The notes beneath the pieces were generated by a model. It was not told where the DNA came from and did no database searches. It worked only from the letters and a program-made list of their open reading frames with translations. The position numbers and the translations under genes are program-made. DNA of 64,000 nucleotides from an uncultured Chloroflexia bacterium (GTDB lineage Bacteria > Chloroflexota > Limnocylindria > Limnocylindrales > CSP1-4): the NCBI GenBank assembly GCA_963707215.1, contig CAVPPB010000001.1, positions 128,001 through 192,000 on the forward strand, written 5' to 3'. Positions 24,506 to 40,757 of the stretch are shown here, piece by piece; positions within the stretch are counted from its first letter, which is position 1; each line of letters starts with the position of its first letter.

Positions 24506-24666
24506 GGCCGCGCGATGGTAGCAGGGGTCGCCGGCCGGACGGTCAGCCGCTGGACGTGCCGAGCACCTCGTCGAGCTGCGACTCGACGTCGTCCGCGATC
24601 GGCGCCGCGGCGGTCGTGGACTCGCTACTGTGCCTCCGGGCGGCCCGGAGCGTCACGGTCCGGCCC

Positions 24667-24709
24667 TAGAATCGCGCGGACGCTCGGATCCGCTCCGGAG
24701 CGAGGGAGG
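24667..24709 (+). promoter_or_regulatory. Putative -10 box and RBS of the P-type ATPase homologue
   Basis: TAGAAT at 24667-24672; GGGAGG shortly before ATG 24714. Confidence 0.5.
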
Positions 24710-24713
24710 CTCG

Positions 24714-27464
24714 ATGTCCGTGCCGTCGGCCGCAGCGGCCACGCGACCCGATCGTCCGTGGCACGCCATGGATCCCGATGCCGTGGCGACCGCGCTCGGG
24801 GTGGAGCCGGCGCGCGGCCTCGACCCCTCGGAGGCCGCCGCCCGCCTGGATCGGTACGGCCGCAACGTGCCCCCCGAGCCGGTCCGCCCGTCCGCCGCCC
24901 GGGCCGTGCTGGGCCAGCTCGTCGCTCCGGTGCCGATCGCGCTCGGCGTGGCCCTCGTCGTGAGCCTTGTGCTCCGGGAGATCTCGGCCGCACTGCTGCT
25001 GGCCGCTGCGGTCGTCATCGACGTGATCGTCGGGGCCAACGAGACCCTGAAGGCGCGGGCGCCGGTCACGGCGATCGGGAGCCTCTGGGCGACGACCGCG
25101 ATGGTCCGTCGGGTCGGTCGGGTCATCCCGGTCAACGCGACCGAGCTGGTCCCCGGTGACGTCGTCTCGATCGGCCCGGGAGACGTCGTGCCGGCCGACG
25201 GCCGGCTGATCGACAGTGTGGCGCTCCTTGTCGACGAGGCCGATCGTGACCGGCGAGACGGCGTCCGACCGCCAAGGCGGTCCCCTTGGTCGGCGCTCCC
25301 GATGCCGCCCTGCCCGAGCGGACCAGCCTGGTCCACGCCGGCTCGCGGGTCCTCCAGGGTCGCGCGACGTTCGTCGCCACCGCCACCGGCCAGGGGACCG
25401 AGCTCGGCCGGATCGCCGGCCTGCTCGGCGCGACCGACCGGGACCCGACCCCGCTCCGGCGCCGGTTGCGCGCATCGGGGACCGCCCTGGCGCTCCTCGC
25501 CGTCGGTGCGATCGCGGTGAGCGTCGCCGTCGGCTGGTACCGGGGCGAGCCCCTGGATCGCCTGGTCCTGGTGGCGATCGGCGTGGTCGTCGCCTCGATC
25601 CCTGCGGGCCTCCCGATCTTCGTCCGGGCCACGCTGGCCGTGGGGGCCCAGCGGCTCGGCATGGCCGGGACGCCGGTCCGCTACCTTGACGCGGTCACGG
25701 CGCTCGGCCACGTCGGAGCCGTCGACGCTGGGCTGGCCGGGATCCTGACCCTGGGCCGTCCGACGGCCCGGTCCGTCTTCTACCGGGGCAGCTGGTACAC
25801 GGTCGAGGGCGATGGCGCGGCTACCTCCGGCCGGATGCTCCACGTCGCCGGGGCGACCCTGCCCGGATTCGATCGGCTTGCCTACATCTCCGCCCTGGTG
25901 ACGGACGTCGCGCTCGGCGACGACGACCCGGCCACGATCGCCTCGACCGAGGCCGCGATGGTCGTCCTGGCCGCCAAGCTCGGGATCGACGCGGATCAGA
26001 GCCGTCATGCCTACCCCCGCCTCCTGGGCCTGCCCTACGACGCCACCCTCGGGCTCGACGGCATCGGTCCATCGCCTGCCGCTCGACGGTCCCGGGTCGT
26101 CGGTCGTCACGGCCCTGGTCATCGGGACGCCGGAGGCCCTGCTCGTCCGGAGCTCTACGGCCGACTGGGGTGGTGAGGACCCGCTCGCGATCGACCCGGT
26201 CCGGCACGAGGTCGAGGCCGCCCTTGCCCGGATGCGGTCGGAGGGCATGCAGGTCGTCGCGCTCGGCGCTCGCCGGCTGACGACCACCCCCGAGGACGCC
26301 GCCGAGGAGATCGCCGCTGACCCGATGACCCTGCTCGGCGACCTGACCTTCGTCGGCCTCGTGGGGATCGTGGACCCGATCCGGCCGGACGCCCGGGCGG
26401 TGATCACGACGGCTTCCAGGGCCGGGATCGACCTCCGGGTCGTCACCGGCCGGGACCCGGTCACCGCGGCGTCGACCGCCGCCGAGCTCGGACTCGCCGG
26501 TGAGGCCATCGGTGGACCGGACCTCGCCAGCCTGTCCGACGAGACCGTGCGGAGCCGACTGACCGGTCTCCGCATCGTGGGCTGGGCGTCCGCCATCGAC
26601 CGTTTGCGGCTGACCCGCGCCCTCCAGGCCGGCGGCACGAGCGTCGCCGTCCTCTCGAACGGCGTCGTCGATGCGCCGGCGATGCGGGCCGCCGGGGTCG
26701 GTGCCGCAAGCCGGCCGGGCTCCGCCGTGACGGACCAGGCCGCCTCGGTGGTCGTCGGCGACGGCGGGCTGGCCGCCCTGCTCCGGGCGATCGCCATCGG
26801 GCGCGAGACGCGGGACCGGGTCGCCGCCTATGGCCGGCTCGCGGCGATCCAGCTCGTCGGGCTGGTGTCCCTGTTCGTGACCGCCGCACTCCTCGACGTC
26901 AACGGCGGCCTGCCGCTGGTGCCCGTCCAGGTCCTCTTCCTGGGTCTCGTCGTCACCGTCTTCCCCGTCGTCGCCATCGCCTCCGACGTGGCCGATCCCG
27001 GCGTCATGGAGCATCCGCCCGACGACCCGGATGGCGGCCCGGCCGATCGACCGACCATCCTCCGCCGGCTCGTGGCCGGGCTGGCTCTCGGGCTCGCGGC
27101 GCTGGCCGTCTACCCCGTCAGCGCTGCGATCGGCTGGGGCGAGCCGGCCTTCGACCGCGCCTCGGTGCCGATGACCCTGGCGTTCGTGACGCTGGGCTTC
27201 GGGACGATCCTGGTCGGGCTGGCCGCGCGGCGGCCCGTGGACTGGGCGTTCAAGAGCCCGTTGCCGCGGTTCCTCGGCATCCTCCTCGTACCGCTGGTGC
27301 TGCTCTTCCTCTCGACCGAGCTGGGCGTCCTGAAGGCGTTCCTCGTGACGGTCGACCTTCGCCAGGAGCAGTGGGGCGTCGCGCTCCTCCTGGGCTCGGC
27401 GGCGTTCTGGGTCATGGAGGCCGACAAGCTCCTCCAGCGACGGGTGCGCATCCGCTTCCACTAG
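24714..27464 (+). CDS. P-type (P2, Ca/cation) ATPase homologue with degenerate catalytic motifs; frameshifts near 25240-25275 and 26058
   Basis: RLDRYGRN, LVPGDVV..GDVVPADGRL, TELGRIA, FVGLVGIVDPIR and C-terminal TMs; DKTGT absent. Confidence 0.85.
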
Positions 27465-27527: not shown

Positions 27528-28247
27528 TCAGCCGTCGATCGTCCGCCGCAGCTCGGCCGCCCGATCGCGGAGGGACCGGAAGTAATCCGAGTCGGTGATC
27601 TCGGCCACCTGCCGGGCCTGGCGCGCCTCGTCGATCTCGATCCGCAGCTCGGCCACCTGCGCTCGCAGGCGCTCCTCGCGAGCCCGCACCTCGCCCGCCA
27701 TCCGCTGGAAGGTCCGGGCAAGCTGACCGAGGGCGTCGTCCCTGGCGGCCACGGCGTCGAGGGTCGCGGGATCGAAGGCATCCGCCTCCACGGCGGCGGC
27801 GGCGTCGATGACCCGCTCGACCTGTTCGAGGTACTCGCGCTCGAGGTCGCGCAACCGCTTGGCTGCCAGCCCGGCGTTGAGGCGGGCTCGCAGGATGGAC
27901 GGGTCGACGGGCTTCGGCAGGTAGTCGAGGGCGCCGAGCTCGATGCAGCGGACGACCGAATCGAGCTCGTCCACCGCGCTGATCACGATGACCGGCAGGT
28001 GGGCCAGCCGCGGATCGGCCTTCATCCGCTCGAGCGTTCCGTAGCCGTCGAGCCGGGGCATGACCAGGTCGAGCAGGACGACGTCGAACGGCGGCTCTCC
28101 GGCGCCGGCGAGGACATCGAGGGCCGCCAGGCCGTCGTCCACGGAGGTGACCGCGTGACCCTGCTCGCGCAGGAGCCGCTCGAGGAGCATCCGGTTCACC
28201 AGAGCGTCCTCGACGACCAGGACGCGGCCGCCGCCCGCCGCGGTCAT
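27528..28247 (-). CDS. Response regulator: REC + HAMP-like segment + coiled-coil tail
   Basis: VLVVED, LLDLVMP, DYLPKP; then DDALGQLARTFQRM and IEIDEARQARQVAEITDSDYF. Confidence 0.9.
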   Translation of the reverse strand: MTAAGGGRVLVVEDALVNRMLLERLLREQGHAVTSVDDGLAALDVLAGAGEPPFDVVLLDLVMPRLDGYGTLERMKADPRLAHLPVIVISAVDELDSVVRCIELGALDYLPKPVDPSILRARLNAGLAAKRLRDLEREYLEQVERVIDAAAAVEADAFDPATLDAVAARDDALGQLARTFQRMAGEVRAREERLRAQVAELRIEIDEARQARQVAEITDSDYFRSLRDRAAELRRTIDG

Positions 28248-28609
28248 GCCCTGGCCGCCACGATCTGCAGCTCCCCCGTCGCCGCCTCGAGCTCGGCGGC
28301 GATCGCCTCGACGGCATCGCCCAGCCCTTCGAGCCCACCGGATCGCGCCTGCGCCTCCAGGACCCGGCAGCGCTCGGCCAACCCCGTGGCCCCGAGGGCG
28401 GCGCTGGACGACTTGAGGGTGTGGGCCGGGCGGACGAGGTCGGCCGCGGATCCGGACTCGAGCGCGGCACGCATGGCCGCCACCTGCCCGGGGGCGTCGG
28501 CGAGGTACGCGCCGATCAGCTCGGCGAGGAACGCACGATCCCCGCCCGTCGCCTCCAGCAGCTGGTCGATGACGACTCGATCGATCGTCGCTCCAGACGA
28601 CTCAGGCAT
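28244..28609 (-). CDS. Stand-alone Hpt phosphotransfer protein
   Basis: AHTLKSSSAALGA motif in a ~120 aa helical protein. Confidence 0.92.
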   Translation of the reverse strand: MPESSGATIDRVVIDQLLEATGGDRAFLAELIGAYLADAPGQVAAMRAALESGSAADLVRPAHTLKSSSAALGATGLAERCRVLEAQARSGGLEGLGDAVEAIAAELEAATGELQIVAARA

Positions 28610-28675
28610 CCCAACCCCTCCGGCCATCGTCGATCGATCCGAGGATAGCGACCGGGTGCCGCACCCGGGATCCGC

Positions 28676-30916
28676 TCACGCCGGCCCGCCGATGCGGACC
28701 GCGTCGGCACCCTCGTGAAGGTCGAGATCCGCCGTGCCGGTCCCGTCGAGCGTCACCGGCACGGCCGGACCTGGGGTCTCGACGACCGCGGCGTCGGCCC
28801 AGGCGGACGAGTCGCCCTCTGCGTCGACCCGGTACGCCCAGACCCGAATCGCGCCTGCGACGCGTGGCTCGAGCTCGACCCGGACGTCCGCGAGCCCGCC
28901 CGCGCTCCCCAGGACCACCGTGGCGCCGTCGGCAGACCGCGCCATCGCACCGGATCTCCAGGTGACCCGGGCGGCCGCCGGCCGGCCGGTCCGGACGACC
29001 TCCAGGGCGGCGGTCCCCGCCCCCGGTCCCTCGACCCGCAGCTGGACCACGGCCCGGGGCCGGAACGCGCCACCTGACACGGCCCGAACGGCGACCACCG
29101 CGACGCCGGCGGCGGCTCCGAGGGCGGCGACTCGGGCGACCGGATCCGTCCAGATCCAGATGCCGTGCACCAGGATCGCTGCGATGAACAGGGCCGCCAC
29201 GGTCGTCACGACGAGCGGATGGCCGATGAACCCGATGACCGGTCGGGGGACGAACTCACCGCGACGCCGGGAGGCAGCCACGAGCAGCATCGGGTAGACA
29301 CCGGCCATCAGCGGCACCGCGAGGATGCCGACGACCGCGAGCGGGGCGGTGAAGTCCGCCACATCGGCCAGGATCAGGACGACGAGGATCAGGACCACCG
29401 CGACGACCGGGAGCAGCGACACGGTCGACCGGCCGCGCCGGCCGGCGATCGCGCGCTGCCACGCCGGCTGCCCGACGCCCGCCGCCCTCGAGACCGGCGG
29501 GAGCCACTCGCGGACCTGGTTGAAGAGCCCCAGGGAGCAGTAGATCGAGCCGATCCCGAGGGCCAGGACGACGTAGATCGATCCGAGGACCAGGACGACC
29601 GGGCCCGCGACCTCGGCGAGCGGCGAGATAGCGGTGCCCTCGAACCCCACGAGCGCCTCCGAGCCGACGGCCCCGTTGACCGCCAGGACGCCGAGGGAGT
29701 ACAGGCCGATCACGGCCAGCATCGCGGCGACGTTGCCGCCGAGCAGCGCCTTGCCGGTCATGTCCTCGCGCAGGAGGAGCTTCGCGGCGTTGCCGGCCGA
29801 GGTGTGCCCGAAGTAGGCCACCAGGATGACCCCGAACACGATCTGGAGCAGCCCGACCTCGAGCACGAGACCGCCCCCCGACGCGTCGATCGCAAGGTTC
29901 GCCGGATCGAGGTACGCCAGGCCGATGGCGCAGATGGCGAGGATCAGGGCGATGTTCACCGCCCCGATCACCAGGGCCGACGCGACCGTCGCGTCGAGCG
30001 CATCACGGCGCAGGAAGTACACGTTGATCGCGAACAGCAGGCCCACCCACCAGAGGAGGCCGATGCCGCTGGCGTCGGACAGCACGGAGGCGAAGCCGAG
30101 CAGGTAGGTGAGGAGCACGACCGCGTTGAAGACGAACAGCGTCACCGTGAACGCGACGGCCCCCCCGCGGCCGAGATACTCCCGGACCAGCCGGCCGAAG
30201 TAGGTCTCGCCGTAGCGCATCTGGCCGGTCCGGGTGATCGCCTCGACGAGGGCGGCCAGGGTCACGACGTTGACGAGGCCCAGGACCACCAGGAGGGCGA
30301 TCCCGGGCAGCGGGCCGATGCCCGCGACGGCGACCGGGATGGCCAGGATCCCCTCGGCGATCGTCTCGGTGAGTGCGAGCGCGAAGGCCATCCAGAACGG
30401 CGGCAGGGTCTCAAGGCGTTCGGCCGCACGCGCCCGCAGCCAGCGGAGGCGATCGCGGACGGGTTGCGGGGCCGCGAAGCTGTGATCGATGACCGCCCCG
30501 TAGGCCCGCTCGTAGGCGGATCGGACGGCGGGATCCCCGGTGCCGAGGGCCGCCGCGACCCGGGATGCCCGGCCGGCCACCAACGGGTACTTCTCCCCGA
30601 GCCGGCGAACGAGGGCGGCCCGGAGGTCCGGGTCCGGCGGGACGAGGTCGGCCCATGACGGGGCGTAGCGCTCGAGGTCCTGGACGGTCACCCGGACCGG
30701 CAGGTCACGAGCCCCGGCCAGCGCCTGGAGGAACGCCAGCTCGCGCTCCTGGACGGAGCGCTCCGTCTCGTAGGTCGCCATCGCTGCGCGCGAGCGATCG
30801 ACCAGGCGGGCGGTCCTGGCCTCGATGGCGAACAGGAGCGTCGTGACCCGCCGGGCCGGCAGCCCGGCCAGCAGCTCGCTCCTGGAGAAGAGCGGCGGGC
30901 CGGCGTCCCCGGTCAT
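28676..30916 (-). CDS. Amino-acid-permease-like (APC/HAAAP-like) membrane protein with N- and C-terminal soluble extensions
   Basis: About 12 hydrophobic segments; TETIAEGILAIP resembles permease TM1 (GxxIGAGILxLP), AYFGHTS resembles TM6. Confidence 0.65.
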   Translation of the reverse strand: MTGDAGPPLFSRSELLAGLPARRVTTLLFAIEARTARLVDRSRAAMATYETERSVQERELAFLQALAGARDLPVRVTVQDLERYAPSWADLVPPDPDLRAALVRRLGEKYPLVAGRASRVAAALGTGDPAVRSAYERAYGAVIDHSFAAPQPVRDRLRWLRARAAERLETLPPFWMAFALALTETIAEGILAIPVAVAGIGPLPGIALLVVLGLVNVVTLAALVEAITRTGQMRYGETYFGRLVREYLGRGGAVAFTVTLFVFNAVVLLTYLLGFASVLSDASGIGLLWWVGLLFAINVYFLRRDALDATVASALVIGAVNIALILAICAIGLAYLDPANLAIDASGGGLVLEVGLLQIVFGVILVAYFGHTSAGNAAKLLLREDMTGKALLGGNVAAMLAVIGLYSLGVLAVNGAVGSEALVGFEGTAISPLAEVAGPVVLVLGSIYVVLALGIGSIYCSLGLFNQVREWLPPVSRAAGVGQPAWQRAIAGRRGRSTVSLLPVVAVVLILVVLILADVADFTAPLAVVGILAVPLMAGVYPMLLVAASRRRGEFVPRPVIGFIGHPLVVTTVAALFIAAILVHGIWIWTDPVARVAALGAAAGVAVVAVRAVSGGAFRPRAVVQLRVEGPGAGTAALEVVRTGRPAAARVTWRSGAMARSADGATVVLGSAGGLADVRVELEPRVAGAIRVWAYRVDAEGDSSAWADAAVVETPGPAVPVTLDGTGTADLDLHEGADAVRIGGPA

Positions 30917-33900
30917 GCCTCCGCCGGAGGGCCGTCGCCCCTCGGGACGCGCTCGAGCGCCTCGACGAGCGCCTCGACCCGGATCGGCTTGCTGACGTAG
31001 TCGTCCATCCCGGCGGCCAGGCAGGCGTCCCGATCCTCGTCCATGGCGTTGGCGGTCATGGCGATGATGTGCGGGCGCCCCTCCGGCCAACGGGCGCGGA
31101 TCCGCCGGGTCGCCTCCAGCCCGTCGAGCTCCGGCATCTGGACATCCATCAGAACCAGGTCGTACCTGGCCGACTCGAGGGCAGCGATCACCGCTAGCCC
31201 ATCCCCAGCGACGTCCGCCGCGTAGCCCATCCGCTCGAGCAGGCGCAGGGCGAGCTTCTGGTTCACTGGGTTGTCCTCCGCCAGGAGGATCCGGAGCGGG
31301 TGGCGGGCGGCCGTCTCCGGGTCCAGGGCCGGGCGATCGGGCGCCCGCTGCACCGGGACCGCGGACGCTCCGGCGAGCGCCGTGACCACGGCGTCGTGGA
31401 GCGCCGAGAGCTTCACGGGTTTGGCCAGGTAGGCGGCCGCCAGCGGGTTCGCCCGGTCGCGATGGCCCGCGGACGACATGACGATGATCGGCAGGTCCGG
31501 TCGGACTGCGCGAGCCGCCTCGGCCAGCGCGAGCCCATCGAGCTCCGGCATCTGGAGATCCGTGATCAGGAGGTCGAGGGGCTCATCCGACCTGACCACG
31601 TCCACGGCATCCGAGGCGGATGCCGTGTCACGGGTCAGCATCCCCCAGCGACCGACCTGCGCCGCGAGGATCCGACGATTCGTCGCGTTGTCGTCCACGA
31701 TCAGGACCCGCCGGCCCACCAGATCAAGCGGCGCGAGGTCGGTCCGCGTCTCAGCGCCATCGGTCCCCGCGGGCAGCTGGACCACGAGACGGAACGTGCT
31801 GCCCTGGCCCGCCACGCCGGTGCTCTCCGCGGTGAGATCGCCGTCCATGAGCTGGGCCAGCCGACGGCTGATGACCAGCCCCAGCCCGGTCCCCCCGAAA
31901 CGTCGCGAGATGCTGGCGTCGGCCTGGCTGAAGCTCTGGAAGAGACGGCTCATCCGGTCGGGCAGGATCCCGATGCCGGTGTCGCGGACCGTGACCTCGA
32001 TGCGCCAGCGGCCGTCAGCTTCGTCGAGCCGCCGGCCGCTCGCGCGCAGCTCGACCTCTCCGGACTCGGTGAACTTCACGGCGTTCGAGAGCAGGTTCAG
32101 GACGACCTGGCGCAATCGGCCCTGGTCACCGACGACGACCCGCGGGAGGGCGTCGTCGACCGCGTAGGCGAGCTCGATGCCCTTCCGGGCTGCCGTCGGG
32201 GCGAGCAGGTCCAGGGCCGCTTCGATGACCCGTCGGAGCTCGAACGGCCTGGCATCGAGATCCACCCGCCCAGCCTCGATCTTCGAGAAGTCGAGGATGT
32301 CGTCGATGATCGTCAGGAGCGCGTCGCCGCTCGTCCGGATCGTCTCGGCGAAGTCGCGCTGCTCCTCCGACAGCGGGGTGTCGAGGAGGAGGCCGCTCAT
32401 CCCGATGATCGCGTTCATCGGGGTGCGGATCTCGTGGCTCATGGCAGCCAGGAACGTGCTCTTGGCCTGGTTAGCAGCGTCGGCCTCCCGCCGGGCCGCC
32501 TGCAGCTCGGTGATGTCGTGGTAGATGGCGTAGAACCCGGTGTGCTCGCCGTCGATGCGGAGGGGCACCATGACGATCTCGACATCGACGCCCCTGCCAT
32601 CCCGACACGAGCGGCGGCCGATCCGAGCGGAGCGTCCAGTCTCGAGCGCCTCCCTCGCCACGCCTGCCCCCTCGGCGCGCATCTCGTCGGTGCTCATGAC
32701 GAGGTCGTCGATGCGCTGCCCGATCGCCTCGACCGGTGTGTACCCGAAGAGCCGCTCGGCGGCCGGGTTCCAGCCCGACACGCGCTCGTCGCGGTCCATG
32801 GTGACGACGGCGACGGGGCTGATCTCGACGAGCGACTCGAAGTAGGCCTTCTGGCGCCGGACCTCGGCGGCCGCCTCGACCTGGCGGGTGACATCCACCT
32901 GGAAGCCGAGGACGTACGCCGCTTCCCCGTTCTCGTCGCGGATCAGCGAGTTGTCGTCACGGACCCAGACCGTCCGTCCATCCGAGGCGATGATGCGGTA
33001 CTCGCCCGTCGCGCGATCGTCGCCGACGTGGACGTACCCCTCCTCGGATCCCACGAGGTCGCGGTCGTCGGGGTGCAACACGGACTCGAAGAACCCGTCC
33101 TCGAGCCATCGCTCGGACGGATACCCGAACATGGCCTCGACCTGCGGGCTGACGTAGAGCGAGGCCCCGAGCGGGTCGCCAGGTCGGTCGATGTAGAGCG
33201 CCAGCGGCAGCTCCTCGACGAGCTGTCGGTAGCGGCGCTCGGCCTCGGCCTGGCGGGCCAGGGCCTCGGTCAGCTCGGCCGTCCGCTCCTCGACCCGACG
33301 CTCGAGGGTCTCGACGTTCTCGCGGAGCTGGGCCGTCATGTCGTTGAAGGCGGTGGTCAGCGTCCCCACCTCATCCTCGGACGTGACGGGCACGTAGGCG
33401 TCGAGGTCCCCGGCCGCGACGCTCGTGGCGGTCGTGGCGAGCCGAAGGATAGGTCTGGTGACCTGGCGAGCGATCAGCCAGATGCCGGCGGCCAGCAGGA
33501 CCGCCGACAGCAGCCCGACGATCGCGATCGTGAGCGCCAGCTCCTGGGCCGGTGCGAAGGCCTCCGCCTGCGGCAGCTCCACGACGAGGGCCGCATCGTG
33601 CTCGGTCAGCCAGCGGTAGACCCCGATGACGGGCACGCCCCGATAGTCCGTGTAGAGCGCCTGGCCGCTTCCGTGGGCGAGTGCTCGGCGGATCCCCTCG
33701 GACTCCACGCCGCTCGCGTACTCGCCCTGGCTGAGCCGGGCGTGCAGGAACCGACCGTCGGGGCCGACCAGGTACGTCGCCCCGCCCTCACCGAGGCCGG
33801 TTCCCTCGAGGACGATCCGGTCGATCCGCTCCAGGTTGAGGTTGCCGGCCAGCACGCCGACCCGGCGACCGCGGCCGTCACGGTCGAACAGCGGCGTGCT

Positions 33901-34458
33901 GACCGTGATGGTCGGGAGACCGGTGAGGGTCGACGTGTAGGCGTTCTGGACGAAGGTGTGCGAGACGCCCCGAGCGAAGAACAGCTCGCTCGCCTGGGAG
34001 GCGCCCTCGTGCTCCGGCCGCGTCGACAGCTCGACGGTCCCGTCGAGATCGAGGACGAGGAACTCCTGGGCATCGGACGTCTGCTGGACGACCACGCCGA
34101 GCGTCTTCTCCAGTGGCTCACGGGCCGCTTCGCGCTCGGCGTCGGTCGTGCTCTCGCCCAGGAAGACGCGTGCGTCGTCCCCGAGGCCCGGGATGCTGCC
34201 CACGAAGACGACGTTCCTCCGCTGCTCGTCGATCCAGCGGTCGAGCGAGTCGGCCTTGACCTCCGCTACCGCCTCGAGCCGCTCGAAGACCGAGCGGGTC
34301 AGGTCGTCCTGCGCCCGGACGTACACCACTGTTCCGACGATGGCCACGGTCAGCCCGGCGAGGACCAGGAAGTAGGCGACGAGGCGGGCCCGCAGGCTGC
34401 GGTTCCAGGGACCCGGGATCCTGGGCCCACGACGGCGACTCGAAGGCGCGGCGGCCAC
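30913..34458 (-). CDS. Hybrid sensor histidine kinase (TM-dCache-TM-HAMP-PAS-PAS-HisKA-HATPase-REC-REC)
   Basis: FLAAMSHEIRTPMN, NLLSNAVKFT, DTGIG, GGTGLGL; receivers ITDLQMP and LMDVQMP; EDEVGTLTTAFNDM HAMP. Confidence 0.93.
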   Translation of the reverse strand: MAAAPSSRRRGPRIPGPWNRSLRARLVAYFLVLAGLTVAIVGTVVYVRAQDDLTRSVFERLEAVAEVKADSLDRWIDEQRRNVVFVGSIPGLGDDARVFLGESTTDAEREAAREPLEKTLGVVVQQTSDAQEFLVLDLDGTVELSTRPEHEGASQASELFFARGVSHTFVQNAYTSTLTGLPTITVSTPLFDRDGRGRRVGVLAGNLNLERIDRIVLEGTGLGEGGATYLVGPDGRFLHARLSQGEYASGVESEGIRRALAHGSGQALYTDYRGVPVIGVYRWLTEHDAALVVELPQAEAFAPAQELALTIAIVGLLSAVLLAAGIWLIARQVTRPILRLATTATSVAAGDLDAYVPVTSEDEVGTLTTAFNDMTAQLRENVETLERRVEERTAELTEALARQAEAERRYRQLVEELPLALYIDRPGDPLGASLYVSPQVEAMFGYPSERWLEDGFFESVLHPDDRDLVGSEEGYVHVGDDRATGEYRIIASDGRTVWVRDDNSLIRDENGEAAYVLGFQVDVTRQVEAAAEVRRQKAYFESLVEISPVAVVTMDRDERVSGWNPAAERLFGYTPVEAIGQRIDDLVMSTDEMRAEGAGVAREALETGRSARIGRRSCRDGRGVDVEIVMVPLRIDGEHTGFYAIYHDITELQAARREADAANQAKSTFLAAMSHEIRTPMNAIIGMSGLLLDTPLSEEQRDFAETIRTSGDALLTIIDDILDFSKIEAGRVDLDARPFELRRVIEAALDLLAPTAARKGIELAYAVDDALPRVVVGDQGRLRQVVLNLLSNAVKFTESGEVELRASGRRLDEADGRWRIEVTVRDTGIGILPDRMSRLFQSFSQADASISRRFGGTGLGLVISRRLAQLMDGDLTAESTGVAGQGSTFRLVVQLPAGTDGAETRTDLAPLDLVGRRVLIVDDNATNRRILAAQVGRWGMLTRDTASASDAVDVVRSDEPLDLLITDLQMPELDGLALAEAARAVRPDLPIIVMSSAGHRDRANPLAAAYLAKPVKLSALHDAVVTALAGASAVPVQRAPDRPALDPETAARHPLRILLAEDNPVNQKLALRLLERMGYAADVAGDGLAVIAALESARYDLVLMDVQMPELDGLEATRRIRARWPEGRPHIIAMTANAMDEDRDACLAAGMDDYVSKPIRVEALVEALERVPRGDGPPAEA

Positions 34459-34460
34459 GG

Positions 34461-35423
34461 TCAGGGCAGCTCCTGCCCGATGGAGTCCAGGTCGAACTCG
34501 CCGGCGGCCGTCGCATAGTCCATGCCGAAGTACTCGAGCGACAGGGCCTCCAAGGTGCCATCGACATGCAACCCGCGGACGATCTCGTCGACGCGCTCCA
34601 CGAACGCGGCCTGGTCCAGGCTCGACGCACGGTCGAGGTACCCGGTCTTCTGCGTGTGGTAGGCCGGCTCCGGCAGCATCCGGAGGCCGAGGCCTCCCGC
34701 GATCGCTTCCGTGCCGACAGGCTCGCCGCACAGGAAGGCGTCGAGCTCGCCTGCGGCGGTCGCCTCCAGGCCCGGCGGCTCTGCGTCGAAGGTGACGATC
34801 TCCGGATCGTCGACGACATACACGAGCGGGGGCCCCGGCAGGACCAGCTCGTGACGGAGGTACAGCTCGTGGGTGCAGCCGGCGCAGGCCCCGACCGTCA
34901 TGCCGGACAGCTCGGCGGCGTCCCGGACGGTTGACCCGACCGGGAGGAAGAAGTTGTGCGGCGTGGCGTAGGTGGGCTGGGTCACGTACAGCCGGGTCAT
35001 CCGCTCCTCGGTGATCGCCCCCGACCCCCAGGCCACATCCCAGCGATCCCCCCAGTTGCCCGCGATGACCTGGTTCCAGGGCGGCGTGACGAAGCAGGCC
35101 TCGACGCCAAGGACCTCGGCCACGGCTTTGCCGGTGTCCGCGTCGAACCCTGCCACCTCGGGCGTGGTCAGCTGGTTCGCGGCGCATTTGGTCCCTGCGA
35201 GCCGCTCGGCGTCGTCGACGAGGAACGACTGGGGCGGGTAGGCCGGGTCGGTGGAGAGCACGATCGTCCCCCGGGCGAGCACTTCGGCGAGCTTGTCGGC
35301 GGTCGGGTCGAGGGACGGCACGCTCGACGGCGCCTGGGTCGCCCCGCCCGCCCCGCCGCATGCGGCGACGAGGACGGCGAGGAGGGCTGCGGCGACCGGG
35401 AGGGACCCGCGCTGCGCGCTCAC
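34461..35423 (-). CDS. Family-3 (polar amino acid type) solute-binding lipoprotein 2
   Basis: Lipobox LVAAC; STDPAYPP, GFDAD, DGTLEALSLEYFG. Confidence 0.85.
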   Translation of the reverse strand: MSAQRGSLPVAAALLAVLVAACGGAGGATQAPSSVPSLDPTADKLAEVLARGTIVLSTDPAYPPQSFLVDDAERLAGTKCAANQLTTPEVAGFDADTGKAVAEVLGVEACFVTPPWNQVIAGNWGDRWDVAWGSGAITEERMTRLYVTQPTYATPHNFFLPVGSTVRDAAELSGMTVGACAGCTHELYLRHELVLPGPPLVYVVDDPEIVTFDAEPPGLEATAAGELDAFLCGEPVGTEAIAGGLGLRMLPEPAYHTQKTGYLDRASSLDQAAFVERVDEIVRGLHVDGTLEALSLEYFGMDYATAAGEFDLDSIGQELP

Positions 35424-36412
35424 TCGAGAACCTGGCCGATCGCGTCGAGGTCGAACTCGCCGGCGGCCGTCGCGTAGTCCTCGCCGAAGGACTCCAGCGA
35501 CAGGGTCCGCAGCGTGCCGTCGGCGTGGAATCCCCGGATGATCTCGTTGACCCGCTCGACGAAGGCCTTGGCATCCAGGCCCGAGCTCTTGTCGACGAAG
35601 CCGGAGGGGTAGTAGGTGAAGGCGACGTCGTCGATGGACCGGAGGTCCAGGCCGTCCGCGATCGCCTGCCCGCCGACCGGATCCGCGCACAGGAAGGCAT
35701 CGAGCTCGCCGTCGCCGAGCGCCTCGAGGCCGGTCGTCTCCGTCTGGAAGGTCACGACGACAGGATCCTGGACATTGACGGCGATCTCTACGCCGGGGAT
35801 CTCGAGCTCGCCATTGAGGTAGTACTCGTGACTGCAGCTGGCACAGGCCCCGATCTCCTTGCCGTCGAGGTCGGCGGCGTCCTCGTACGGGGAGTCCGAC
35901 CGCACGAAGTACAGGTTCGGCACCGCGTAGTAGGGCTGGGTCATCCAGAGCCGGGTCATCCGGTCGGCGTTGATCGAGCCGGAGCCATACGAGATGTCCC
36001 AGCGGTCGCCCCAGTTGCCGGCCGTGATCTCCGTCCACGGCGGGACCACGAAACACGGTTCCACCCCGAGCGCGGCCGCGACCGCCTTGCCGGTCTCCGC
36101 GTCGTAGCCGGTCACCTCGTCCGCCGTGAGCTGATCCGGCGTGCAGCGAGTGTCGGCCGCTCGTGACGCTCCCTCGACCTCGAAGGACTGCGGGGGATAG
36201 GCCGGGTCGGTCGACAGCACCAGGGTCCCCCGGGCAAGGATCTGGGCGAGCTTGTCCGATGCGGGATCCCTGCTCGGGTCGGCGGACGGGACCGGTGTAC
36301 CGCCGGCCCCACTCGCGCACCCCACGACCAGCGCGGTCGACAGTGCCAAGGCGAGGCCCAGGGTGAGCGCGTGGGGCCTGGCTCGCGGCGATCGATCGAG
36401 GGACGCTGGCAT
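35420..36412 (-). CDS. Family-3 solute-binding lipoprotein 1
   Basis: Lipobox VVGC; STDPAYPP, GYDAE, TQPYY, DGTLRTLSLESFG; paralogue of its neighbour. Confidence 0.85.
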   Translation of the reverse strand: MPASLDRSPRARPHALTLGLALALSTALVVGCASGAGGTPVPSADPSRDPASDKLAQILARGTLVLSTDPAYPPQSFEVEGASRAADTRCTPDQLTADEVTGYDAETGKAVAAALGVEPCFVVPPWTEITAGNWGDRWDISYGSGSINADRMTRLWMTQPYYAVPNLYFVRSDSPYEDAADLDGKEIGACASCSHEYYLNGELEIPGVEIAVNVQDPVVVTFQTETTGLEALGDGELDAFLCADPVGGQAIADGLDLRSIDDVAFTYYPSGFVDKSSGLDAKAFVERVNEIIRGFHADGTLRTLSLESFGEDYATAAGEFDLDAIGQVLE

Positions 36413-36429
36413 GGACGCTCCTGAGTTGA

Positions 36430-37198
36430 CTAGGGGGGCGGCGCGGCGACGAGATCGGCGGCGATCGCACGGTAGCGCGCCGCGAGCTCGTGCTGTGGGT
36501 AGCGCAGCGCGAAGACACCTTCGCTGGCCAGTCGCATCAGGTCGTCGGAGTGCGGCAGCACGGCCGCCACGTCGCAGCCATACGCCTCGCGGACCCGCTC
36601 GGCGACGACCTCCGGCGGGATGTCGCCCGGGGCCTTGTTGACGAGGATCGAGATCCGCGGGACCTCCAGCTCGCGGGCGACCCGGACCGTGATGCCGGTC
36701 CCCTCGTAGTCCTGGCGGTCGGGGCGCATGATCACCAGGAGCGACTGCGAGATCACGAGGGAGAGGAGGGTCTCCTCGTTGAGCCCAGGGTGGGTGTCGA
36801 TGAACAGGACATCGAGGCCGAGCTCGGCGACCAGGTCGCGCAGGCCCTCGGTCAGCCGCTGGGCGTCGTAGCCCTCGCGGAGGACCCGGGCGATCTCGCC
36901 CGGCTGCATGCTCGAGGGGATCAGGTACAGCTTGCCGGCAAGCGGGACGCCCTGGCGCTCGGTCACGTCGAGGGCGACCTCGCCGATCGGCCGGCCATGC
37001 CAGAGGAAGTCGTTGAGCGAGCCCAGGAACGTCCTCGCCGGCAAGGCCGAACAGGACGTGGATGCCCGGTGACTGGATGTCGGCGTCGATGACCCCGACC
37101 CGGCGCCCGTCGGCCGCCAGGCAGGCGGCGAGGTTCGCGGTGGTGTTGGACTTGCCGGTCCCACCCCGGAACGAGTGCACGGACACGATGGTCGCCAC
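36430..37198 (-). CDS. MinD/ParA-family ATPase (one frameshift at the C-run 37022-37024)
   Basis: IVSVHSFRGGTGKSN, VIDADIQSPG, FIDTHPGLNEE, ILVNK; GGAGG RBS. Confidence 0.9.
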
Positions 37199-37246
37199 CG
37201 ACGCGCCCCTCCCGCCGCCCGAGCGGCCGTGCTTCCTTGGCGGCGG

Positions 37247-37252
37247 ACTATA
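37247..37252 (-). promoter_or_regulatory. Putative -10 box of the signalling operon
   Basis: TATAGT on the minus strand about 50 nt upstream of the MinD-like start; rare AT-rich hexamer in this GC context. Confidence 0.55.
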
Positions 37253-37300
37253 CCCGATGGGACCGGGCGCGAGGCGCTGGGGCCGCGCCGAGTCGGCGTC

Positions 37301-39593
<2,293 letters not shown>

Positions 39594-39601
<8 letters not shown>

Positions 39602-40757
39602 GTCTCTGCCTCCGATCCCCCCTCGGCCCGAGTGGTCCCTCCTGGTACGAGGCACCGACCGCCTGGTCCGCCGTCACCACCTCGCCCACCACCACGGCGC
39701 TCACCCCCCGGTCCGCGAGCCACCGGATCAGCGTCGGGACGTCGGCGCCGTCGACGATCGCGATCATGCCGAGGCCGGCGTTGAAGGTCGCCCGGAGCTC
39801 AGCGTCGTCGATCCCGGCCAGGGCGGCGATCAGGCGCATCTCCGTCGGGACCAGCCAGCGCGTCGGGTCGAGCCTCGCCGCGAGGCCGTCGGGGAGCGCC
39901 CGGGGCACGTTGCCGGGCAGGCCGCCCCCGGTGACGTGGGCGAGGGCGTGAAGGTCGGAGCCCCCGGCTCGCAGGGCCGCCCGGGCCGCCAGCACGTCCG
40001 CCGCGTAGATGCGGGTCGGTGTCAGGAGGACCTCGCCGAGGGTCGCTTCGCGTCGCTCGGGCGCCTCCGCCAGCACCTGCGCCGCCGCGTCCGGCCCCAG
40101 GGTTCGCTCCACGAGGGAGACGAAGCCAGTTCCCAGGGCGAGGTCGTGCTCGTCGAGGACGCTCCGGACGAGCGAGTAGCCGTTCGCATGGAAGCCGCTC
40201 GAGGCCAGCCCCACGAGCACATCGCCGGCCCTGACCGCGGAGCCGTCGAGGGCGAGGTCACGCTCCACGACGCCGACGCAGAAGCCGGCCAGGTCGAGCG
40301 CCTCGGGTGGCATCAGGCCGGGGTGCTCGGCCGTCTCCCCGCCGACCAGGGCGCAGCCGGCGGCCCGGCAGCCCGCGGCGATGCCGCCGACGACGGTCGC
40401 CACCCGGTCCGGGTCCAGCCGTCCGACCGCCAGGTAGTCAAGGAAGAAGAGCGGGGCGGCGCCGGCGCAGACGACGTCGTCGGCGCACATCGCCACGAGG
40501 TCCAGGCCGATGGTGTCCCAGCGGTCGAGCGCAGAGGCGATGGCCGTCTTGGTCCCGACCCCATCGGTCGCCGAGACCAGCAGCGGGTCGACCATCCCGG
40601 TCGGCAGCACCGTGGCCCCGGCGAAGCCGCCGAGCCCGCCCACGACCTCGGGCCGGCGGGTCGACTCGACCGCGGCCCGGAGCAACTCGACGGCTCGCTC
40701 GCCCGCCACGACGTCCACCCCGGCCGCGGCGTAGGCATCCCTTGCGCCCGAGCTCAT
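39594..40757 (-). CDS. purM: AIR synthetase
   Basis: YAAAGVD, TDGVGTK, GGETAEHPG, HVTGGGL, TFNAGLG. Confidence 0.97.

Follow-up and report, generated by a model that had tools for sequence, protein, structure and literature searches.

The C-terminal part of a response regulator encoded in a 64,000-nucleotide stretch of DNA from an uncultured Chloroflexia bacterium (assembly GCA_963707215.1, contig CAVPPB010000001.1; the whole stretch is referred to here as the window) consists of a divergent, HAMP-like domain, a signalling helix and a conserved tail of 35 residues, and its genomic distribution ties the tail to a distinct subfamily of MinD-like ATPases, a member of which is encoded by the first gene of the same operon. 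Comparative genomics strongly supports a functional link between the tail and these ATPases. An earlier reading of the window, made from its letters alone (the sequence-only reading), had proposed that the tail is an unnamed output or docking module linked to a MinD subfamily, and the patterns of co-occurrence, adjacency and gene fusion described below support that proposal at the level of predicted function. The explanation that we favour, and regard as fairly probable, is that the tail is a HAMP-gated output that docks on a dedicated MinD-like ATPase.

Co-occurrence, adjacency and fusion of the tail and the ATPase

A total of 401 genomes of the window's phylum were searched with a profile of the module, defined as the C-terminal ~100 residues (130–239) of the response regulator with its HAMP-like part, helix and 35-residue tail, and with the C-terminal 200 residues of the ATPase (E≤1e-12); a tail was counted only where the module match reached the tail end. 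This analysis identified 92 tail matches in 44 of the 401 genomes and 72 matches of the ATPase subfamily, also in 44. Both were present in 43 genomes, the tail alone in one (G086), the ATPase alone in one (G379, 80% complete) and neither in 356, so that the distribution is not independent of the MinD-like ATPase, an outcome that the sequence-only reading had named as refuting its idea. In the seven families in which presence varies (f1, f10, f14, f16, f17, f24 and f26), 28 of the 29 genomes having either component have both. The distribution is patchy: in the window's own family, the tail or the ATPase occurs in the window's genome only (0 of 23 others). Six module matches end before the tail, and such a match is the sole one in three genomes (G147, G225 and G050), all of which lack the ATPase subfamily; the link is therefore to the tail and not to the HAMP part. 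As for distance, 56 of the 92 tail matches lie within 10 kb of an ATPase match and 20 within 1 kb, and for 61 of the 72 ATPase matches a tail is found no more than 10 kb away.

An independent sample of loci was obtained with a degenerate DNA pattern for V-A-E-I-T-[DE]-[ST]-D-Y-F, which was found in at least 121 stretches of species-representative genomes; 80 of these were examined with flanks of 8 kb (two of them, L094 and L095, belong to one contig). The 80 loci come from Chloroflexota (Anaerolineae, Chloroflexia, Limnocylindria and Thermomicrobiales), Cyanobacteria (Nostoc, Leptolyngbya, Plectonema, Limnospira, Oscillatoria and others), Actinomycetota (Solirubrobacterales, Rubrobacteraceae and Nanopelagicales), Armatimonadota, Bipolaricaulia, Binatia and one "delta proteobacterium". 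A full tail match was present in 78 of them, and the ATPase subfamily was detected at ≥150 bits in 42, including 26 of the 38 loci with full flanks. The ATPase lies within 750 bp of the tail in 31 loci; both genes share a strand in 30 of these adjacent pairs, and 29 of the pairs have the tail gene immediately upstream. In addition, among 21 neighbourhoods fetched by hand, the module-bearing proteins and the ATPase were the only components present in every locus. The statement in the sequence-only reading that similar tails occur on varied cyanobacterial and Chloroflexota signalling proteins near this MinD subfamily is borne out: the tail follows many input architectures and is usually adjacent to the ATPase.

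The two components also occur in single polypeptides. In P0358 (677 residues), the order is REC, HAMP-like part, REC, module and ATPase, and the P-loop variant is identical to that of the subfamily. Such REC-REC-module-ATPase fusions form seven clusters at 90% identity and belong to two lineages, with 43% identity between the lineages; one fusion is located on a contig of 129 kb, and one was labelled Vulcanimicrobiota by its source. The fusions keep the T-x-T-D-[FY] element of the tail.

Anatomy and spread of the module

The response regulator gene (P0001) occupies positions 27528..28247 on the minus strand of the window and encodes a protein of 239 residues with an ATG start, composed of REC, divergent HAMP, signalling helix and conserved tail. 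The REC domain (27879..28223, minus strand; residues 9–123) matches Pfam PF00072 with an E-value of 1.5e-25 and 89.9 bits against a cut-off of 30.2, which places it within that family. This is the sole Pfam match of the protein, and its closest matches among NCBIfam families and PDB sequences are PleD-type receivers, over the REC part only. Compared with the established REC pattern, the residues that we take to be the acidic pair (E13/D14) and the phospho-acceptor (D60), as well as S90 and K112, are in place. Downstream on the same strand, the linker helix and divergent HAMP (27693..27860; residues 130–185, the HAMP itself at about 139–185), delimited from an AlphaFold2 model, are followed by the signalling-helix segment (27648..27692; residues 186–200) and the conserved tail (27543..27647; residues 201–235), both delimited from the model and from column conservation. 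The sequence-only reading had drawn attention to positions 27528–27830, corresponding to residues 140–239 plus the stop codon, as a HAMP-like segment with a C-terminal tail; both strings that it quoted, AAAVEADAFDPATLDAVAARDDALGQLARTFQRM (residues 150–183) and IEIDEARQARQVAEITDSDYFRSLRDRAAELRR (residues 203–235), are present in the protein, and the observation was confirmed.

The AlphaFold2 model of the module, calculated from a 30-row alignment, has a mean predicted local distance difference test score (pLDDT) of 94.9 and contains a helix at residues 130–154, a connector with a short helix at 160–167, a long helix at 172–218, a break at D219-S220 and a terminal helix at 221–238. The tail motif reads L-R-I-E-I-D-x3-[RK]-x4-V-A-E-I-T in its first half, directly followed by x-[ST]-D-Y-F-x2-L-x2-[KR]-A-x2-L-[RK] in its second. 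Column conservation, computed over 151 representatives, is high in the signalling helix (R190 100%, E191 95% and L194 99%) and throughout the tail, comprising its beginning (L201 99%, I203 86%, E204 81%, I205 75%, D206 94% and [RK]209 91%), its middle (V214 91%, E216 80%, I217 91%, T218 85% and [TS]220 97%), its distal part ([DE]221 89%, Y222 84%, F223 96% and L226 97%) and its end ([KR]229 83%, L233 82% and [RK]234 98%). The conservation of the tail, on which the sequence-only reading depended, is evident from these columns and from the 1860 cluster representatives described below. Since exposed polar residues of the tail are conserved, the tail appears to present a surface to a partner, and packing within a helix bundle does not alone account for it. 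The tail is charge-balanced, its best-conserved polar residues including E204, D206, E216 and D221 together with [RK]209, [KR]229 and [RK]234; with its conserved acidic residues it is not a basic helix like those of MinE and ParB, to which the sequence-only reading had compared it in suggesting a possible ATPase-activating peptide.

The assignment of the first half of the module rests on its relatives and on the model. Pfam HAMP is matched (E≤0.1) by 22 of 30 module relatives, with a best E-value of 4.7e-11, and several relatives exceed 25 bits, the gathering score of HAMP PF00672, inside the module (P0272 with 29.0, P0285 with 30.5 and P0307 with 26.5), whereas the window's own copy has no Pfam HAMP match even at E≤10. 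The label "HAMP-like" given in the sequence-only reading is thus upheld by the relatives and finds no counterpart in a Pfam match of the copy to which it was applied. The two amphipathic helices and the connector of ~14 residues that characterize a HAMP domain are seen in the AlphaFold2 model, and the HAMP part carries the pattern D-x-L-G-x-L-A-x-x-F-x-x-M. A Foldseek comparison of the module with the PDB gave no match at E≤0.001; its top rows, none of which reaches a significant E-value, were the Af1503 HAMP and HAMP-DHp fusions, and the Af1503 HAMP superposes with a root-mean-square deviation of 1.3–2.0 over 52–58 columns and a template modelling (TM) score on the target of 0.75–0.79 (E 2–5, not significant). 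We read this half as a divergent HAMP.

The tail is covered by no family of Pfam or NCBIfam and by no sequence match in the PDB, and the protein atlas returned "hypothetical protein" clusters only, with no Pfam family in common. No description of the module or of the pairing of tail and ATPase was found in Pfam, NCBIfam or the full-text literature, from whose coverage most subscription journals are excluded. In the accessible part of a 2026 preprint on ParA-like nucleoside triphosphatases in immunity (10.64898/2026.10.19.760177), the terms "receiver" and "two-component" do not occur, and "HAMP" has 0 occurrences.

An exhaustive HMMER search with residues 129–239 against 1.84 billion cluster representatives (at 50% identity) identified 1860 matches at E≤1e-3, of which 679 reach E≤1e-10 and 11 reach E≤1e-30. 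Among the best 150 of the 1860 matches, found in proteins of 95–962 residues, the module lies at the C-terminus or close to it, with three exceptions: P0309, the cyclase form P0368 and P0358, which is a fusion with the ATPase. When residues 130–239 were compared with a collection of 5.8 billion proteins, 2172 of 4494 candidate proteins reached E≤1e-3; the best 120 of these 2172 share 75–100% identity over the module and are nearly all REC-plus-module proteins of ~240 residues, and a search restricted to longer proteins gave 163 at E≤1e-3. The inputs that precede the module include REC, HisKA+REC, GAF, PAS, cNMP, Cache, CHASE3 and MASE1. According to a hand tally of the Pfam table for 143 representatives, the input is REC in 31, HisKA+REC without HATPase_c in 31, HAMP only in 22, GAF-containing in 16, cNMP-binding in eight, Cache in three, PAS only in two, and MASE1, DUF4118 and HD_3 in one each; one representative is a probable chimera, one is a REC-REC-module-ATPase fusion and 25 have no input family. 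The proteins in which HisKA (without HATPase_c) and REC precede the module (P0253, P0264, P0278 and 28 others) have ~400–450 residues and look like a phosphotransfer DHp domain fused to a receiver.

The position of the tail within these proteins is illustrated by P0368, a REC-HAMP-cyclase regulator in which the linker, HAMP and helix are as in the module (66% identity over query residues 2–83), whereas the helix runs into another segment in place of the tail, which we take, from its motif, to be a class III cyclase catalytic domain. The presence of this cyclase-like segment at the tail's place indicates that the tail occupies an output position. A different arrangement was observed in some proteins of family f10, in which the HAMP part and the tail are matched ~500 bp apart in one open reading frame (ORF), ~170 residues being seemingly inserted (G166:C13:88817-89692, G370:C11:253114-254019 and G043:C1:1254403-1255260). 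In the window's genome, a tblastn search for a second copy of the module found none, and a profile search gave one further weak match, to the HAMP part only (E 5.8e-6).

The operon, the ATPase and other recurrent components

The response regulator gene is the last of seven genes that form one operon on the minus strand, separated by gaps of ≤48 nucleotides; two of the junctions have overlapping ATGA stop/start codons, and the ATG of the response regulator overlaps the Hpt stop codon. The first gene (36430..37198), read in two frames, encodes the MinD-like ATPase of the HSFRGGTGKS subfamily, and it is followed by genes for two SBP_bac_3-type lipoproteins, paralogue 1 (35420..36412; Pfam SBP_bac_3, E 2.4e-14) and paralogue 2 (34461..35423; named from the Pfam match of paralogue 1 and from sequence likeness). 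The remaining genes encode a hybrid histidine kinase with the architecture dCache-HAMP-PAS-PAS-HisKA-HATPase-REC-REC (30913..34458; likely start GTG at 34458), a transporter-like, Aa_trans-related membrane protein with a cytosolic N-terminal domain (28676..30916; a weak Pfam Aa_trans match, E 2.3e-9), whose likely start is the ATG at 30916 that overlaps the kinase stop codon, and an Hpt phosphotransfer protein of 127 residues (28244..28627; Pfam Hpt, E 8.8e-15). As predicted from its gene content, the operon has the layout of a kinase → REC → Hpt → REC phosphorelay that ends in the C-terminus of the response regulator. A gene order like that of the window, namely ATPase, membrane protein, kinase, Hpt and REC-module, is found in other loci, for example L109, L119 and L097; in these three the membrane protein gene directly follows the ATPase gene, whereas the two tandem SBP_bac_3 paralogues of the window (34461–36412) lie between the ATPase and kinase genes. 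Elsewhere on the minus strand of the window (37301–39655), an ORF of 784 residues contains Formyl_trans_N, MGS-like and AICARFT/IMPCHase domains and is an apparent PurN-PurH fusion.

The ATPase subfamily belongs to the general ParA/CbiA/AAA_31 Pfam families and is distinguished by the P-loop H-S-[FY]-R-G-G-T-G-K-S, in which an arginine takes the place of the signature lysine. In an alignment of 27 sequences, R13 is nearly invariant at this position, so that the P-loop departs from the deviant Walker A pattern K-G-G-x-G-K-[ST]. Full-length relatives score 70–99 bits against minD_arch (cut-off 201.75) and 42–59 bits against minD_bact (cut-off 212.9), and the subfamily therefore lies outside MinD proper (TIGR01968 / TIGR01969); against AAA_KGGVGR, it scores 71–79 bits (cut-off 90).

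The two reading frames of the window's ATPase gene switch near 37021–37029, where the window has one extra base compared with relatives. Contigs of four metagenome runs were compared over positions 36400–37300 of the window, and six related contigs were found to bridge the site; all six have exactly one base fewer, and one of them differs by one other letter only over 151 bases. Close relatives therefore have an intact ATPase gene, and the window carries either an assembly indel, which is the more probable, or a strain-specific mutation. An assembly error is favoured because a neighbouring P-type cation ATPase gene on the plus strand (24630–27464) is also split, into three overlapping ORFs in different frames (24630–25520, 25286–26176 and 26007–27464); this split gene, which adjoins the response regulator gene, suggests further frameshifts in the assembly.

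Two further components recur around the tail and the ATPase. The transporter-like membrane protein neighbours the system in 6 of the 21 hand-fetched and 23 of 79 motif-picked loci, and in P0121 it is fused to REC and the module. The N-terminal cytosolic domain of the membrane protein is conserved and matches no known family. In many genomes, the gene immediately downstream of the ATPase gene encodes a small winged-helix-like protein of ~110 residues, whose family has no Pfam or NCBIfam match (L035:10740-11075, L036:7461-7805, L037:10080-10439, L044:3707-4039 and others); the family is present in 29 of the 80 motif loci, 22 of these being among the 42 with the ATPase, and a search of the window's genome did not reveal it (best E 1.5e-3). 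In L036, a copy is embedded in a homologue of the membrane protein (E 8e-18). The membrane protein and the small winged-helix-like protein are candidates for the step after the ATPase. The small protein ends with R-x-L-P-x-D-[IL]-W-x-x-L-D, and in some loci it and the ATPase are accompanied by a cysteine-rich, zinc-ribbon-like protein of 70 residues that ends with P-Q-P-E-P-I-x-M-P-E-L-Y (L036:7235-7447, L044:10646-10858 and L078:8939-9154).

Proposed mechanism, alternatives and wider meaning

HAMP domains normally relay to a kinase, methyl-accepting chemotaxis protein, cyclase or GGDEF domain. We propose that residues 130–239 act as a two-part output module, in which the HAMP domain and signalling helix would receive a conformational change from the upstream input, here a REC domain fed by the phosphorelay of the operon, and the tail would stand in for an enzymatic output domain. 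Many sensors, often 2–5 per genome, would address one dedicated HS[FY]RGGTGKS ATPase through this tail, which most likely docks on the ATPase; switching of the HAMP domain would alter the presentation of the tail, and the altered presentation would change the nucleotide or dimer cycle of the ATPase. The next step would be an action of the ATPase on another partner, which in the operon type of the window is probably the transporter-like membrane protein and in other genomes probably the small winged-helix-like protein encoded just downstream. Within this scheme, we infer that tail and ATPase are in physical contact, that the signal runs from the sensor to the ATPase and that ATP hydrolysis is affected.

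Several observations weigh against this proposal. The tail is present in G086, which is 100% complete, and no ATPase was found there with the query used; the Fisher p-value of 1e-55 for the co-occurrence overstates independence because the sampled genomes are related; 36 of the 92 tail matches are not within 10 kb of an ATPase match; 38 of the 80 motif-picked loci have no ATPase within 8 kb, many of them being short contigs; and the ATPase gene of the window itself carries a frameshift in the assembly. In the fusions, E-E-L-E/D stands in the place of I-E-I-D, and there is no distal helix, a linker of 8–12 residues leading instead into the first strand of the ATPase. The whole tail is therefore not needed once the two proteins are tethered, and, judging from these fused sequences, the distal tail may be a tether that a covalent link makes superfluous. 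The predicted fold of the fusion P0358 (33-row alignment; mean pLDDT 78.8) has a predicted TM score (pTM) of 0.41 and a pLDDT below 50 over the tail region (residues 409–432), and so it says nothing on the packing of the tail.

The same data on co-occurrence, adjacency and fusion would also fit a tail that binds the ATPase as a cargo tag, with the ATPase positioning or clustering the sensors instead of receiving their signal. ParA/MinD-family ATPases that position signalling arrays are known, and several tail proteins share one or two ATPases per genome (92 versus 72 matches, in 44 genomes each). We nevertheless consider such a role unlikely, given that, in the Pfam tables, the tail proteins show no further output domain and a pure tag would leave them without an output, that the tail stands where its sibling P0368 has its presumed cyclase, i.e., at the output position, and that the HAMP switch directly precedes the tail in the 22 of 30 relatives with a Pfam HAMP match. 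It is likewise rather improbable that the tail binds the membrane protein or the small winged-helix-like protein and never touches the ATPase. The frequency of both proteins near the tail, and the fusion of the membrane protein with REC and the module in P0121, are in favour of such a partner; however, neither protein is universal, the small protein being undetected in the window's genome and the membrane protein missing from most loci, and it is only the ATPase that tracks the tail genome by genome and is fused right behind it.

A reading that dispenses with a partner altogether, in which the tail closes a dimeric helix bundle in the manner of a DHp hairpin and the link to the ATPase merely reflects shared operons and descent, appears very unlikely. 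The hydrophobic positions of the tail are indeed conserved, and the best Foldseek row for the whole model is a HAMP-DHp fusion (3zrw_B, TM 0.62, E-value not significant), but conservation is about equally high at the exposed polar positions (for example, D206, E204, T218, [TS]220 and [RK]234, at the values given above), the tail is gained or lost along with the ATPase in each of seven separate families, and the proteins would have no output whatever. Hardly any credence can be given to a HalX-like or DNA-binding output of the helical C-terminus, for which the window's fragment offers a weak Pfam match (E 0.043; 14.6 bits against a gathering score of 23.2). HalX is described as three helices of unknown function (PMC5847659). 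It is matched by 2 of 30 relatives only (best E 0.025), beside other coiled-coil noise families, and the match is therefore attributed to coiled-coil noise; moreover, the AlphaFold2 model contains no helix-turn-helix, and the tail is charge-balanced rather than basic. Kinship with HalX (PF08663) was accordingly rejected, the score being below the gathering cut-off. A defence-system function was considered as well, but the inputs, which are environmental sensors, and the chromosomal conservation point to ordinary signalling.

The proposed docking of a HAMP-gated tail on the ATPase resembles several known systems in part. The first half of the module is like HAMP (PF00672) with a signalling helix in its helix-connector-helix arrangement and differs in ending in a 35-residue tail without a family. 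MinE (for MinD) and the N-terminus of ParB (for ParA) are also short helical elements, with basic residues, that are dedicated to a deviant-Walker-A ATPase and encoded adjacent to it; the tail, in contrast, has no sequence similarity to these peptides, is charge-balanced and is joined to sensors through a HAMP switch. PpfA with TlpT and ParC with ParP, which position chemoreceptor arrays, likewise couple a ParA/MinD-type ATPase to signalling proteins through a terminal segment or adaptor, but they belong to chemotaxis clusters with CheA and CheW, whereas here the partners are diverse sensors without an output and the ATPase subfamily is distinct. MinD-like ATPases of the FleN/FlhG type, which are reported to regulate a transcription factor (PMC8528422), are alike in serving as a regulatory switch rather than in cell division; the subfamily and the partners are different here, and there is no flagellar context.

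Across Chloroflexota, Cyanobacteria, Actinomycetota, Armatimonadota and further phyla, thousands of predicted sensors lack a recognised output and bear no annotation beyond "response regulator", "HAMP domain-containing" or "GAF domain-containing" protein; a common output module together with a candidate receiver ATPase turns these unannotated sensors into a testable pathway. Reception of a signal would also be a role beyond those already known for ParA/MinD ATPases. Some strains of Nostoc and Leptolyngbya are genetically manipulable, and the system is present in relatives of both, so that knock-outs and binding assays would be within reach if the strains prove tractable. More tentatively, the tail and the HS[FY]RGGTGKS ATPase could constitute the core of a separate and widespread class of bacterial signalling, running from sensors of any kind (two-component receivers, cNMP, GAF, PAS, Cache or CHASE3) through a HAMP-gated docking helix and an ATPase switch to a transporter-like or winged-helix protein; we hold this broader view possible rather than probable. 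If true, it would place a new class beside the one-component, two-component, chemotaxis-type and nucleotide second-messenger routes.

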